DNA of 64,000 nucleotides from an uncultured Planctomycetia bacterium (GCA_964572255.1 CAZNEE010000001.1:139520-203519), one strand, 5' to 3'; positions 57,886 through 64,000 are shown, counted from the stretch's first letter. Notes: generated by a model from the letters alone, not told the origin. Made by a program: numbers and translations.

Positions 57886-58224
57886 ATGAGTTTTCCGATC
57901 ATCAGGACAAGGAACAATACCTATATTATACAATTGCGGAAGGATATAACGGTTTACCAGCTCCAGGATCTTCAGGATACCATACAAAGGCTGAGAGATA
58001 AAAAAGGGAATAAGAACGTGATCGTTGATATGAGGGATGTCAGCTATATAGACGCCTTTGCCATAGGCGCGCTGACTTCACTTGCGAAAGAAGCAAGGGA
58101 AAACGGCGGAGACCTTAAGATCGTACGCATAAGTGACGATATTAAGACTATTTTTGAACTTTCACATCTTTCTAAAGTATTCGATGTATATGAAAGAATC
58201 GAAGAAGCGGAGAAAAGTTTCTGA
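57886..58224 (+). CDS. STAS-domain protein (anti-sigma-factor antagonist-like)
   Basis: VIVDMRDVSYIDAFAIGALTSLAKEARENGGDLKIV; RBS AGGAAGGTGAGGG; ATGA overlap with the next gene. Confidence 0.75.
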   Translation: MSFPIIRTRNNTYIIQLRKDITVYQLQDLQDTIQRLRDKKGNKNVIVDMRDVSYIDAFAIGALTSLAKEARENGGDLKIVRISDDIKTIFELSHLSKVFDVYERIEEAEKSF

Positions 58225-60767
58225 TGACTTTCTATAAAAGATCCATTCCAGGAAGTTTACTTATTTTACTTTTTTGTTCCGTTCTTTTTCTTTCCGGCTG
58301 CGGAAAGTTCACCAGGATCAAATCCCAAGATACAATATTAGGACATAAGCTTCTTGATCCTAAAGGAAACATTGTTTTGGCTCTTTTTGACAGTTCTGAA
58401 GGCAGAAGAGCAGGTATTATCGAAATCAAAAAATATATTGAAAAAGATCTTGAAGATCTGGGGTATAAGGTGATTTATCATAACATCAATAAAGGCCTTC
58501 CTTCCAGAAGAGTCACTTCAAAGACAAGGAGCATAATATCTTGGTTTACCGATTCAAAGATGAAGAACCCGGCCATTTATTGCGACTGGCTGGCGGGCCA
58601 AATAAGTGAAGGCAAAAAAGCCGTAATAATCGATAACTTCGGAGCATATCAGGATTCGAAGAACAATGAATGGACCGATATGAATCTTATAAACAAGGTC
58701 TTCAAGCGGTTAGGTGTTGTTTACAAGGCGAACTGGACCCAGGACGCGGATCTGCTTGAAGTTGTTTATAAAAATCCGGATATAGTTGAGAAACTGTCCC
58801 CGCTGGACTTGTCACGTGCGAGTCATTATTATCTTTTCAGTAAGATCGACGATAGAGTGAAGCCCTCTCTTGTTATACGCAGAAAAGACCTTGATTCCAG
58901 CGATAGCTGTGTGGTTTTTTCTCACCCCAATGGCGGCATGATACTTTCACGGTATATTATGACAGCGGGTCTCGAAAAGCCCAATATAGACTTTTTTGCT
59001 TTTTTGAATGAATGCTTTAGCTATAAACCTTCTTATGTAAAGCAGAAGATCTTAGCTGTCTGGGATGGAACAGAACCGGAGTATATGGAATACCTCAAGA
59101 ACCTGGCCAAAGCCCTGGAGTATGCGAAGATCGAATTTGAAATATTGCGTTTTAGAGATATAGAAAGACTCATGCTTGATGATCTCCAGAAATTCAGCTC
59201 CGTGGTCCTTATTACGGAAAATCTATGGAAAGTTGAGAATAGAAGGACTATAGAGTTCTTAAAAACATATGTCAGGGAGGGAGGAGGCCTTGTTGCCTCA
59301 TACAGGTGTGAAAATATAAATTTAAATGATCTCTTCGGCATAGAGAGACAGCATGATTTTTATAAAGATCCGATAAAAGGGATGAAGTTTGAAGAGGATT
59401 TTTTCCCGGGCTCAAAAGAGATTTTTTATCCGAAAGAGGAATTGTGGAGCAGTTCGATAAATATAATCCTGCAGAAAGATGTCCTTGTTCTTGCAAGAGC
59501 TTTGGATACGACCGATGAATATCCCGAAGGTATCCCGTTATCCTGGCTTAAGAAATACGGGAAAGGACGCGTAGTTTACTGGAATTCGGATCTGTTTGTA
59601 CGTAAAACCTTAAGAGGGCTTTTCTTGAGGTCTATTATGTTTTCCCAGAATACAAGCGTCTCTTTTTTGGCTAATATCGAAAGCATACACATGGATGACA
59701 GCCCCCAGCCCATGTACAACATGATGAAAGAACCGCTTAAAAGCCTGTATAACATGACCGATACCCGTTTTTACATGGATGTCTGGTGGAAGGACATACT
59801 TGAGCTGTCCAGGAAATACGGCATACATTTCACTTTTTATGCCATTTTTAATTATGGAGCAAGCATGGAGCCGCCTTTTAATAACCGTGAGTTTGAATTC
59901 GGGCAGGATAACGCGTTTAAGGAACTTACAAAGAGAGTGATCGAAAACAATTTTGAATTGGGCTTTCACGGTTTCAATCACCAATCATTAATGTTATCCG
60001 GTAAGGATCATACCGGCTGGGGTAATGAAAAGTTCATGGAGGAAGCCCTGCTGCAGGGCAGGAAGCTCTGGGGGGAAGAAATGCCGGAAGTGGAGGCGCC
60101 TTTTTCTTATGTGGCCCCGATGAATGTTGTAGGGCCCGAAGGGAAAAGGCTGCTGCATAAGGTATTCCCGGAAATAAAGGTGATATCAAAGATATATACC
60201 GAGCCCGATCTTTTGATCCGGGAGCAGGAATTCGGGCCGGACCCCGACGTGGAAGAGTTTTACAATATTCCCAGAGCTACCTCCGGGTATATATTCACGC
60301 TTGATAACAAGATAGCGATGATAAACTTGATAAATACTTTCGGTGTCTGGACGCATTTCCTTCACCCTGATGATATATTCGGAAGATACGCTCAAGGCAA
60401 GGATAACGCGTATGAAAAAGATGAACACGGGGTAAAGAGCTGGGAAGATATGATGGTTTCAACGCATGAGATGTTCGATTTCGTCAGAAAAAAATATCCC
60501 TGGCTCAGGAACATGACCACTAAAGAAGCTTATTATGAATTAGTAAAATATTTTAATACCAGGGTCAGGGTTGAGTTTGATGATGAATCTGTATATGTTG
60601 ATTTTACCAGCGGGGATGAGGATGATAAATATTTTTGTTTATCGATAAATAACGACAGAAGAATATCCGAGGTAAGGAATGCAGAACTGGCTCATTTATA
60701 CGACGATATGGATATTTATGTTTTTAGAACACGGTCCAACAAAGTGAAAATAAAGCTGGAAAAATAA
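58224..60767 (+). CDS. PelA-like lipoprotein: N-terminal glycoside-hydrolase-like region + C-terminal CE4/polysaccharide-deacetylase-like domain
   Basis: Lipobox LSGCGKF. The C-terminal region carries HMDDSPQP (Asp-Asp motif) and FELGFHGFNHQS (HxxxH). Its size (847 aa) and its position upstream of a TPR/beta-barrel gene and a PelD-like gene also fit. Confidence 0.45.
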   Translation: MTFYKRSIPGSLLILLFCSVLFLSGCGKFTRIKSQDTILGHKLLDPKGNIVLALFDSSEGRRAGIIEIKKYIEKDLEDLGYKVIYHNINKGLPSRRVTSKTRSIISWFTDSKMKNPAIYCDWLAGQISEGKKAVIIDNFGAYQDSKNNEWTDMNLINKVFKRLGVVYKANWTQDADLLEVVYKNPDIVEKLSPLDLSRASHYYLFSKIDDRVKPSLVIRRKDLDSSDSCVVFSHPNGGMILSRYIMTAGLEKPNIDFFAFLNECFSYKPSYVKQKILAVWDGTEPEYMEYLKNLAKALEYAKIEFEILRFRDIERLMLDDLQKFSSVVLITENLWKVENRRTIEFLKTYVREGGGLVASYRCENINLNDLFGIERQHDFYKDPIKGMKFEEDFFPGSKEIFYPKEELWSSSINIILQKDVLVLARALDTTDEYPEGIPLSWLKKYGKGRVVYWNSDLFVRKTLRGLFLRSIMFSQNTSVSFLANIESIHMDDSPQPMYNMMKEPLKSLYNMTDTRFYMDVWWKDILELSRKYGIHFTFYAIFNYGASMEPPFNNREFEFGQDNAFKELTKRVIENNFELGFHGFNHQSLMLSGKDHTGWGNEKFMEEALLQGRKLWGEEMPEVEAPFSYVAPMNVVGPEGKRLLHKVFPEIKVISKIYTEPDLLIREQEFGPDPDVEEFYNIPRATSGYIFTLDNKIAMINLINTFGVWTHFLHPDDIFGRYAQGKDNAYEKDEHGVKSWEDMMVSTHEMFDFVRKKYPWLRNMTTKEAYYELVKYFNTRVRVEFDDESVYVDFTSGDEDDKYFCLSINNDRRISEVRNAELAHLYDDMDIYVFRTRSNKVKIKLEK

Positions 60768-60791
60768 TTGTCAAGGGGGTATATTCTTAAT

Positions 60792-63846: not shown

Positions 63847-63862
63847 AAGACATTAAAGTAAT

Positions 63863-64000
63863 ATGAATGTAATCCTTTTATTGATCGGTTTTGCGATCGA
63901 AGTCGCGGCGCTGGTTTTTTTCAAAAACAGCGAGATAGCGGATTTTTCATCCCTTTTTTATCTTTTTCTTTTAATACATCTCGTCGCGGTTTCGGTGTTT
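63863..64000 (+). CDS. Membrane protein, 5' fragment (PelE-like position); continues beyond the window
   Basis: MNVILLLIGFAIEVAALVFF... open to the end of the window. Confidence 0.3.
   Translation, partial: MNVILLLIGFAIEVAALVFFKNSEIADFSSLFYLFLLIHLVAVSVF

Follow-up and report, generated by a model that had tools for sequence, protein, structure and literature searches.

The locus at the end of the 64,000-nucleotide (64-kb) stretch of DNA analysed here (the window) raises the question of which type of Pel system, if any, it encodes. Pel is among the most widespread biofilm polysaccharides. In current models, Gram-negative Pel production relies on a bifunctional PelA, a long PelB and a PelC ring, and Gram-positive Pel production relies on a membrane-tethered PelA_DA and lacks an export apparatus. 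The initial annotation described positions 57886-64000 as a Pel-type locus of the order A-B-D-E, with a STAS gene at its head and no pelC. Judged from sequence, this region is probably the 5' half of a ~12-kb operon for a c-di-GMP-activated, synthase-dependent Pel-type exopolysaccharide system of a diderm host.

All open reading frames of the region were found at the coordinates originally assigned to them (all locus features located within the window are on the + strand). Together with domain matches, whose E-values at the locus are far beyond chance, they bear out the initial description. Contig L001, which is identical to the window across 11,540 shared bases (0 mismatches), carries sequence past the window end. 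The combined gene order is STAS - pelA - pelB-like - pelD - pelE - HEAT - pelF - pelG, followed by REC-GGDEF; the genes of the locus overlap or are tightly packed. The membrane-protein frame reported to run off the window from 63863 is indeed cut there and is completed on L001 as a 340-aa protein with TM segments and TPRs. PelF (GT4) and PelG, expected downstream, are both present on L001. The genes there are not unrelated to the locus, because they are PelE-like, PelF and PelG.

About nine related loci, most of them from Omnitrophota, have the same gene order, with PelD identity going down to 44%. The host is most likely a member of Candidatus Omnitrophota, an assignment based only on named relatives at 50–58% identity. 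Two neighbouring genes had been regarded as unusual additions to the operon. Of these, only STAS is a conserved companion of the locus; the other, encoding a GT-C-like 540-aa membrane protein immediately upstream, has no counterpart in the related loci. A second conserved addition is the HEAT-repeat gene (L001 12463-13809), which lies outside the window and outside what the initial annotation could see; STAS and HEAT are conserved members across the ~nine loci. A candidate sigma-70-like promoter (TTGACA-17 nt-TAATAT, 57823-57851), followed by the RBS AGGAAGG, is a consensus match only, and promoter-type consensus sites in the scanned region number 52 against 39 ± 6 expected. Located in the gap before STAS, the site suits an operon that opens with this gene. 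Such an arrangement is seen in L008 and L010, whose upstream genes run in the opposite direction.

STAS (57886-58224, 112 aa; an alternative GTG start at 57877 would give 115 aa) belongs to the SpoIIAA/RsbV family (Pfam STAS, 1e-19) and has the corresponding fold. It also heads the locus in L003, L004, L005, L007, L008 and L010. This protein could be a transcriptional partner-switching regulator (anti-sigma-factor antagonist), controlling expression only and not forming part of the machinery. Such a function is suggested by its score of 71.8 bits against the NCBIfam anti-sigma antagonist model TIGR00377 (cut-off 53.45) and by its nearest structures, TM1442 (6e-13), SpoIIAA (1e-7) and RsbV. However, the canonical phospho-Ser position of the DS*xG motif, where a phosphorylatable Ser/Thr is expected, is occupied by Ala (IDAFAIG aligned to MDS*AGLG), and by A/A/S/P in four relatives. 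Genes for an anti-sigma kinase, PP2C phosphatase or sigma factor were not found in the 64-kb window or 4 kb downstream. In addition, the TGA of STAS and the start ATG of the following gene share bases (TGATG); the start-codon overlap is repeated in L007 and L010, and in L008 STAS ends 3 nt before the next gene. A purely transcriptional role is thus rather unlikely, and association of STAS with the machinery is tentatively preferred. The window encodes a single HATPase protein, a sensor histidine kinase of the HisKA type (33877-34998).

The 461-aa protein (62461-63846) is PelD, a predicted c-di-GMP receptor with four hydrophobic TM segments, a GAF domain (Pfam GAF_3, 5.7e-5) and a degenerate GGDEF domain (1.5e-9), in which KDDTF stands in place of the GGDEF motif. 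Its profile aligns with those of four canonical PelD proteins (hhalign probability 99.2%, E 1.2e-19, 386 columns), and a PelD-type GAF protein of Cetobacterium is matched by blastp at 3e-18. The Pfam PelD_GGDEF model gave no match to this protein even at E up to 10, and P. aeruginosa PelD was not among the structures retrieved by a profile search of the PDB. The I-site RxxD (R387-G-G-D390, 63619-63630) aligns with that of canonical PelD and is invariant in 16 family members. R419 (63715-63717), the equivalent of the second c-di-GMP-contacting arginine, is likewise invariant in the 16 sequences and follows R387 by 32 residues, which is the spacing of R363/R395 in Bacillus cereus PelD. The B. 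cereus PelD has been validated experimentally (PMC7112168). The original assignment of PelD, with a degenerate GGDEF domain and a retained I-site, therefore holds by hhalign and by the invariant I-site residues, and c-di-GMP binding could be predicted from the conserved R387, D390 and R419.

PelE begins at 63863 and is cut by the window end (64000); the whole gene (L001 11403-12425, 340 aa) encodes TM segments 2-20, 31-49 and 73-91 and a HEAT-like/TPR cytoplasmic domain, with TPR at 261-316. It aligns with four canonical PelE proteins (hhalign probability 98.8%, E 1.2e-16, 294 columns). Mismatched control pairs in the PelD/PelE comparison were negative (E 0.08–0.94). The plasmid operon L012 of Paraburkholderia graminis, with the system of Pseudomonas aeruginosa (pelABCDEFG), served as the Gram-negative reference. 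PelF, a predicted cytoplasmic protein (L001 13831-15303; N-terminal DUF3492, 4.6e-86, and Glycos_transf_1 of family GT4, 2.6e-30) is 37% identical to Paraburkholderia PelF over 495 aa, that is, over its full length (1e-127). PelG (L001 15352-16758; PF16933, the family of polytopic PST/MATE-like membrane proteins, 1.7e-126, full length) is 32% identical to its Paraburkholderia counterpart, also over the full length (6e-64). REC-GGDEF (L001 16870-17733) is a response-regulator diguanylate cyclase with an intact RYGGDEF.

The 847-aa product of the second gene (58224-60767) is a mosaic PelA, a lipoprotein and predicted polysaccharide de-N-acetylase. It matches Pfam DUF2194 at 3e-102, with the profile match extending to residue 833, and its residues 283-794 match the PelA_DA structure of B. 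cereus, 9zau (8e-53). The lipobox LSGC (residues 23-26, 58290-58301) contains Cys26, which is at least 90% conserved. It is followed by an alpha/beta domain (~residues 40-275, 58341-59048) whose homologue in Gram-negative PelA is the mixed alpha/beta, ThuA-like domain, as indicated by blastp against residues 312-468 of Paraburkholderia PelA (7e-7) and by hhalign (probability 98.5%, E 3.6e-15, 208 columns). The AF2 model of the domain (pLDDT 76) has PelA 9cgy as its best Foldseek match (4e-9, TM 0.54). In Gram-negative PelA this domain is predicted to dock on PelB (PMC12022489). Next come a CBM114-like alpha/beta/alpha domain (~residues 283-480, 59070-59663), delimited by the 9zau alignment, with a ThuA match at 301-453 and the domain definition of PMC13254593, and a CE26 deacetylase domain (~residues 481-760, 59664-60503). 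Residue-by-residue alignment of the latter to 9zau, with positions confirmed, revealed D491/D492, H582, H586, P632/N634, R684, H714 and D716/D717; the motifs HMDD (489-492) and HGFNH (582-586) are included. Catalytic roles of the equivalent B. cereus residues D262, H488, R458, N407 and D490/491 have been described (PMC13254593). A C-terminal beta-rich domain of the DUF2194 protein (60504-60764) is covered by the DUF2194 match to 833 and by the 9zau alignment to 794.

By its domain composition, this protein is of the Gram-positive PelA_DA type (DUF2194; CBM114 + CE26), to which a Gram-negative-type N-terminal domain has been added. The initial annotation was right about a lipoprotein with a C-terminal deacetylase signature (lipobox, HMDD, HGFNH, DUF2194) and wrong about a hydrolase-like N-terminus as in PelA: GH114 gave no match in the protein at E up to 10, and tblastn with a GH166 protein found nothing within the 64-kb window. 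In a profile comparison, the CE region showed no similarity to that of canonical PelA. The assignment as a Gram-negative bifunctional PelA was rejected, the enzyme being DUF2194/CE26 and not CE21, without GH114/GH166. The mosaic PelA is not obligatory, because in L005, L008 and L010 STAS is directly followed by the exporter gene, and in L004 a GH114/166-like gene lies between the two.

The chemical nature of the product bears on the name of the system. The polymer could differ from Pel, for example by being rich in GlcNAc or further decorated, and the name would then be a misnomer. The identity of PelF to the canonical protein (only 37%) could be explained in this way, as could the result of the Pfam scan, in which a UDP-GalNAc 4-epimerase gene was not found nearby or in the 64-kb window. 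Glycosyltransferases of the membrane GT-C/PMT_2 type recur beside related loci, and the 540-aa protein upstream of the present one is GT-C-like. On the other hand, none of the catalytic and substrate-binding residues tested in the GalNAc-specific enzyme of B. cereus is missing from the deacetylase, and the gene between STAS and the exporter gene in L004 is endo-alpha-1,4-polygalactosaminidase-like (GH114/166). A different polymer is therefore considered unlikely, and a Pel-type product is retained.

The third gene encodes a minimal PelB-like exporter consisting of a signal peptide, six TPRs and a beta-barrel. Counted from TTG at 60768, its open reading frame comprises 550 aa; ATG at 60792, behind the RBS AAGGGGG, is the likelier start (60792-62420, 542 aa) and agrees with the database gene call. 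In the AF2 model (pLDDT 75.6), the TPR domain (residues 36-242, 60897-61517) has 12 helices, i.e., six repeats, and matches Pfam TPR families at up to 1e-23. The outer-membrane beta-barrel (residues 244-542, 61521-62417) is modelled with 14 strands and is given as 14-16 strands; the conserved terminal barrel segments, including the C-terminal YSQYF beta-signal, are not covered by the modelled strands. Foldseek matches spanning both TPRs and barrel (415-604 columns) are BcsC (9b8a, 4e-16; 9b8h; 6tzk) and PelB (9h80_M, 3e-10); PgaA is matched as well. A signal peptide and a C-terminal Phe are also found in the orthologues. The barrel family is tiny (14 representatives in 1.84 billion proteins), and no sequence similarity of the barrel to the PelB porin was found. 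The canonical PelB features (~19 TPRs, an alpha-rich region and a 16-strand homologous porin) are absent from the 542-aa protein. The barrel resembles those of EPS exporters only in architecture and fold. The description as a short PelB-type exporter thus stands for the TPR array and the barrel ending in YSQYF, and fails for the relationship of the barrel to the PelB porin.

PelDEFG could be genuine and the TPR-barrel protein still not be the polymer exporter but another TPR-tethered outer-membrane protein; the polymer would then remain in the periplasm or attached to the cell, or be released along a different path. This is quite improbable, since in all related loci the gene is flanked by STAS or PelA on one side and by PelD on the other, and TPRs joined to a C-terminal barrel are the signature architecture of synthase-dependent EPS exporters, with BcsC and PelB as Foldseek matches. 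Moreover, PelA of this locus has a counterpart of the Gram-negative PelA domain for which docking on the TPRs of PelB is predicted. The protein is accordingly treated below as the exporter.

PelC is a ~170-aa outer-membrane lipoprotein, encoded between pelB and pelD in the Gram-negative type. At the corresponding place in the window, the gap between the pelB-like gene and pelD is 40 nt. With PelC as query, tblastn gave only matches of E > 0.3, both in the window and in every related locus, and the whole-window Pfam scan contained no such family; a PelC gene may lie elsewhere in the genome. A divergent export apparatus without PelC, as initially suggested, agrees with this result and with the lack of similarity of the barrel to the PelB porin. 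An ordinary Gram-negative pelABCDEFG-type operon, with the 847-aa protein as bifunctional PelA and the 542-aa protein as a truncated true PelB, would account for the A-B-D-E-F-G order, the TPR-barrel exporter and the Gram-negative-type origin of the PelA N-terminal domain, but is scarcely credible and largely refuted by the lack of GH114/GH166 in the protein and the window, the DUF2194/CE26 deacetylase in place of CE21, the unrelated barrel sequence, the absence of PelC and the extra STAS and HEAT.

The Pel-type system could operate as follows. The adjacent REC-GGDEF cyclase, with its intact GGDEF motif, would make c-di-GMP, which would bind to the PelD I-site through the conserved R387, D390 and R419. 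PelD, PelE, PelF and PelG, recognised by homology, could form an inner-membrane synthase complex by analogy with P. aeruginosa and B. cereus. The synthase may polymerise and translocate an N-acetylhexosamine polymer, probably alpha-1,4-GalNAc. The lipid-anchored CE26-type PelA, in view of its conserved catalytic residues, would partially deacetylate the polymer in the periplasm; its extra N-terminal domain may tether the enzyme to the six-TPR exporter. The polymer would exit through the 14-16-strand barrel. Export could proceed as in PgaA/BcsC, as the architecture suggests, because there is neither a PelC ring nor an alpha-rich PelC-docking region. The cytoplasmic STAS and HEAT proteins, which are co-inherited with the locus, could speculatively be additional synthase subunits with a regulatory or scaffolding role.

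These features may define a third, previously undescribed Pel class, the 'Omnitrophota type', a proposal made tentatively and held at slightly less than even confidence. It would comprise a PelB-docking domain fused to a CE26 enzyme, a PelC-free minimal lineage-specific TPR-barrel protein and two new cytoplasmic subunits. If so, the non-phosphorylatable STAS and HEAT would bring to PelDEFG an extra level of control or assembly that no Pel system studied so far is known to have, and these conserved proteins are candidate new synthase partners or regulators. [quoted passage not shown] The role of the PelA docking domain, so far proposed only from AlphaFold models, would gain support from an independent lineage, and Pel-type export may, to judge from this locus, need neither PelC nor the alpha-rich region of PelB. 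Omnitrophota-like bacteria are an uncultured, often ultra-small or host-associated group. The gene content indicates that they may be able to make an adhesive, c-di-GMP-controlled matrix polymer.

Among known systems, Gram-negative pelABCDEFG shares with this locus periplasmic modification, an outer-membrane exporter and then a PelD-E-F-G synthase. PelF and PelG are clear orthologues, PelD and PelE are homologues at the profile level, the I-site is kept, and the exporter has TPRs and a barrel. The present locus differs in lacking GH166 + CE21, in its CE26/DUF2194 deacetylase and in the lipoprotein nature of PelA. Its exporter has 6 TPRs instead of ~19, no alpha-rich region and a barrel unrelated in sequence; PelC is absent, and STAS and HEAT are added.

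Gram-positive pelDEA_DAFG (B. cereus ATCC 10987, 9ZAU) has the same CBM114 + CE26 + beta-rich deacetylase with conserved catalytic residues, the same PelD I-site spacing (R..D..32..R) and a PelA without a hydrolase domain. By BLAST, PelD is detectably closer to this type, for which the Cetobacterium protein served as the representative. Unlike it, the present locus includes an outer-membrane TPR-barrel exporter, STAS and HEAT, and the gene order differs. The Gram-positive PelA_DA is anchored by an N-terminal TM helix, whereas here a lipobox and an extra Gram-negative-type alpha/beta domain are found. Fusobacterial pel loci (Cetobacterium somerae plasmid L013; Fusobacterium nucleatum) are also those of diderms, with a DUF2194-type PelA, a GAF-type PelD, PelF and PelG. 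They differ by having no PelB-like exporter, STAS or HEAT, by a separate GH166 hydrolase and by a PelA of 609 aa without the extra N-terminal domain.

A 'pelB fission' was reportedly noted by Bundalovic-Torma et al. in 2020. The split PelB of Azospirillum thermophilum (L014) has a similarly short barrel piece (526 aa against 542 aa here), but the long TPR piece and PelC, absent from the present locus, are still encoded there by separate genes. PgaA (PNAG) and BcsC (cellulose) differ from the window exporter in a barrel without sequence similarity to it, in their much greater length and in serving PgaCD or BcsAB instead of a PelDEFG synthase. They share with it periplasmic TPRs directly joined to a C-terminal barrel in one polypeptide, without a PelC-like lipoprotein ring, and BcsC is its best full-length Foldseek match.

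All six open reading frames of the initial annotation were recovered on the + strand. The gene for a 540-aa polytopic protein (56192-57814, +) is followed by a near-consensus candidate promoter pair, TTGACA-17-TAATAT (57823-57851, +), ahead of the STAS gene (+), whose likeliest start is the ATG at 57886 (112 aa), with the ribosome-binding site AGGAAGG eight bases before it. The STAS gene and the 847-aa gene (58224-60767, +) overlap, the TGA of the first with the ATG of the second. The exporter gene (+) most likely starts at ATG 60792 rather than at TTG 60768; the resulting 542-aa product matches the database gene call. 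The 461-aa PelD gene (62461-63846, +) and a further reading frame beginning at 63863 (+) complete the set.

Contig L001 shares 11,540 bases with the window without a single mismatch, and could therefore be read as its continuation, so that the genome sequence covered comprises the 64-kb window and about 6 kb beyond. Past PelD, L001 encodes a 340-aa protein with transmembrane and TPR segments, a 448-aa HEAT-repeat protein (HEAT_2, 8e-49), a 490-aa DUF3492+GT4 protein, a 468-aa PelG (PF16933, 1.7e-126) and a 287-aa REC-GGDEF protein in which the motif RYGGDEF is intact (L001 16870-17733). Unrelated genes downstream were to count against the initial annotation; since the PelE-like, DUF3492+GT4 and PelG genes belong to polysaccharide synthesis, it stands on this point.

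The synthase core of the locus is Pel as judged by sequence comparison with the annotated pelABCDEFG operon of a Paraburkholderia graminis plasmid and with three further canonical operons (Azospirillum, Pseudoalteromonas and Azonexus). PelF is 37% identical to its Paraburkholderia counterpart over the full length (1e-127) and PelG 32% identical (6e-64). PelD and PelE gave no recognisable match to the canonical proteins in pairwise BLAST. In profile-profile comparison with the four canonical sequences, the PelD family matched with 99.2% probability (E 1.2e-19, 386 columns) and the PelE family with 98.8% probability (E 1.2e-16, 294 columns), while mismatched control pairs gave E values of 0.08-0.94. 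These matches confirm PelE at 63863 and PelF and PelG downstream, as the initial annotation had expected. For PelD this took the four-sequence profile: with only one canonical PelD, hhalign reached a weak 8% probability.

The assignment of the 461-aa protein as PelD, the predicted c-di-GMP receptor, likewise holds, with caveats: the Pfam PelD_GGDEF model did not match it at E up to 10, and PDB sequence and profile searches retrieved generic GGDEF domains only, never Pseudomonas aeruginosa PelD. R387, D390 and R419 are invariant in the 16-member family alignment, and canonical PelD has its RxxD motif and second arginine at the corresponding positions. Bacillus cereus PelD shows precisely the same spacing between R363, D366 and R395, residues for which c-di-GMP binding was shown by experiment (PMC7112168). 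The GGDEF-equivalent position, KDDTF in the window protein, is degenerate and variable in the family. By BLAST this PelD is nearer to Gram-positive and fusobacterial proteins (3e-18 to a Cetobacterium protein) than to proteobacterial ones. The REC-GGDEF gene, directly 3' of pelG and beyond the window end (given as about 2.9 kb), encodes a response-regulator diguanylate cyclase with an intact GGDEF and an RKSD I-site, and is preceded by a promoter-like site of its own (L001 16823-16850). This adjacent cyclase is likely a local c-di-GMP source for PelD.

The 847-aa protein had been taken for a PelA with a C-terminal deacetylase and a hydrolase-sized N-terminal region. The deacetylase part is upheld by homology: the protein matches DUF2194, the family that typifies the mono-functional PelA_DA of Gram-positive bacteria (PMC7890745), at 3e-102, and the best solved relative (8e-53, residues 283-794) is 9ZAU, the B. 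cereus PelA_DA, which combines a beta-rich domain with CBM114 and CE26 (PMC13254593). Each residue required for the activity of that enzyme (PMC13254593) has its counterpart in the window protein: D262 (D491), the zinc-binding HxxxH motif (H582 and H586), N407 (N634), R458 (R684), H488 (H714) and D490/D491 (D716/D717). The hydrolase part fell away, as no GH114 or GH166 match was obtained in the 847-aa protein. In contrast to the Gram-positive PelA_DA, the N-terminus is not a transmembrane helix but a lipoprotein signal, LSGC, whose Cys26 is conserved, and the lipobox is separated from CBM114 by about 250 extra residues.

Similarity in sequence to Gram-negative PelA is confined to this extra domain; hhalign gave no significant match to PelA for the CBM114, CE26 or C-terminal parts. 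[quoted passage not shown] Its AF2 model (pLDDT 76, pTM 0.70) retrieved in Foldseek, as the top match, Pseudomonas thermotolerans PelA (9cgy, 4e-9, TM 0.54, 20% identity), which leads generic GATase/ThuA folds by more than three orders of magnitude. An origin of the extra domain as a duplicate of the neighbouring CBM114 is not supported, the comparison being not significant. From its domain composition, the 847-aa "PelA" is a mosaic and not the Gram-negative enzyme; among the related loci it is shared with L003 and L007 only. [quoted passage not shown] The fusion would thus supply a PelB-docking adaptor for the CE26 deacetylase.

The initial annotation called the exporter a shortened PelB/PgaA-type protein. 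Its TPR and barrel architecture is upheld by an AF2 model built on a five-sequence alignment (pLDDT 75.6), in which a signal-peptide-like N-terminus is followed by twelve helices forming six TPRs (residues 36-242) and, straight after them, a run of fourteen long strands in antiparallel arrangement (260-522). The model lacks confidence at two conserved end segments, residues 244-257 and the C-terminal ...FTVKYSQYF. A C-terminal Phe is the usual beta-signal of outer membrane proteins, and all four orthologues have both a signal-peptide-like N-terminus and a final Phe. Since these two conserved terminal segments lack a confident model and the orthologues end in Phe, the barrel is predicted to comprise 14-16 strands. 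The net negative charge of the barrel (-21 in the window) was dropped as evidence, not being conserved in orthologues.

Similarity to the PelB porin was not borne out: comparison of the barrel with the profile of the canonical PelB C-terminus (porins) was not significant (E 0.095). Among 1.84 billion representatives searched exhaustively with HMMER there were just 14 relatives of the barrel, all at E <= 4e-13, and no link to known porin families; twelve have the size of TPR+barrel proteins (338-848 aa) and two are fragments (126 and 161 aa). Membership of the PelB family cannot be claimed from these comparisons. The absence of pelC noted initially extends to the locus, the 64-kb window and every related locus. 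In PelB, an alpha-rich region is enclosed by the PelC dodecamer (PMC12022489); the window exporter leaves no room for such a region, which fits the missing PelC. The protein would follow the pattern of PgaA or BcsC, in which TPRs lead straight into a barrel and no lipoprotein ring is present.

The related loci, from Candidatus Omnitrophota MAGs and metagenomes, were found by scanning contigs with the PelD alignment, a scan with the single PelD sequence giving no matches; their PelD proteins are 44% to 58% identical to that of the window. Two genes at the head of the locus had been regarded as unusual additions. This proved apt for the STAS gene, which is the first gene in six related loci (L003, L004, L005, L007, L008 and L010). 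It is followed by the exporter with nothing between in L005, L008 and L010, and by a GH114/166-like hydrolase gene in L004. Its product scores above the NCBIfam anti-sigma antagonist cut-off, with TM1442 and SpoIIAA as its nearest matches; their phosphorylated Ser is Ala in the window protein and A, A, S or P among relatives. Genes for an anti-sigma kinase, a PP2C phosphatase or a sigma factor were not found in the 64-kb window.

The second addition, the 540-aa protein directly upstream of the locus, was ruled out as a conserved member; having no homologue in any related locus, it is treated as a neighbour. It has about 9 hydrophobic segments and weak matches only, to EpsG, GT22 (Glyco_transf_22) and the putative glycosyltransferases LA_3751/3752 of Leptospira. 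GT-C/PMT_2 enzymes of other kinds recur near related loci. A HEAT gene comes after PelE in L006, L007, L008/L009 and L010. The HEAT protein has no hydrophobic segment, is cytoplasmic and resembles generic PBS-HEAT/alphaRep repeats only; its descent by duplication from the cytoplasmic region of PelE is not supported (E 0.012, 3.5% probability, not significant). The Pel literature examined yielded no mention of STAS or HEAT accessory genes, and no literature linking Omnitrophota to pelF or pelG was found. Two families of membrane-anchored proteins of ~240 aa, without Pfam match or homologue in the window, occur repeatedly side by side, within related pel loci or next to them (L004 7283-8754; L010 14634-16077 and, on the - strand, 4895-6173; L008 5464-7604, -), and one of them also constitutes the C-terminal part of PMT_2 glycosyltransferases.

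Across the 64-kb window, no GH166 or epimerase gene was found, and Rfam and tRNA scans turned up neither tRNA nor rRNA nor a member of any other Rfam family. The + strand carries 48 of the 49 selected reading frames, and GC skew stays positive all the way from 50 to 64 kb. Just upstream lies an oxidative-stress cluster (51411-54455: two rubrerythrin-family proteins, flavodoxin-like FMN reductase, glutaredoxin and thioredoxin-reductase-like flavoprotein), preceded by an Rrf2 regulator (50377-50820). A glycogen/alpha-glucan cluster (40352-49515) encodes a 1030-aa fusion of GH57 and starch synthase (GT5), two further GH57 enzymes (4-alpha-glucanotransferase-like and branching-enzyme-like), a DUF4912 protein and GlgC. 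A complete Bat/MoxR-type operon (11237-19522) comprises MoxR AAA, DUF58, an unknown protein, two BatA-VWA proteins, a TPR protein, BatD and a TPR-SH3 protein. A giant 2242-aa reading frame (26552-33280) contains a weak protein-kinase-like stretch (residues 853-1051, 4e-10), with an RNase_Y_N-like coiled region as the only other Pfam signal.

The locus matches neither described Pel architecture. The order of functions, the TPR-barrel exporter and one PelA domain are common with the Gram-negative type; the CE26 deacetylase and the flavour of PelD are common with the Gram-positive type. Other diderms also have a DUF2194 PelA: Cetobacterium and Fusobacterium possess one, without any PelB. Contig L018 (4012-13963) has the order PelF, 537-aa unknown, GH114, 660-aa unknown and 1320-aa DUF2194 protein; the neighbour of this locus bears a T9SS sorting tail, suggesting a further variant of Pel among diderms. 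A short barrel-bearing piece also exists in Azospirillum thermophilum, where a canonical-type pel operon on a plasmid (L014 504-15380), with epimerase and separate GH166 hydrolase genes, encodes a 755-aa PelA without hydrolase and a PelB split into 1018-aa and 526-aa genes; "pelB fission" has been described (PMC7112194). Three traits appear to be new: a CE26 enzyme fused to the putative docking domain of Gram-negative PelA, a lineage-specific exporter of minimal size that lacks a PelC partner, and STAS and HEAT genes conserved with the locus.
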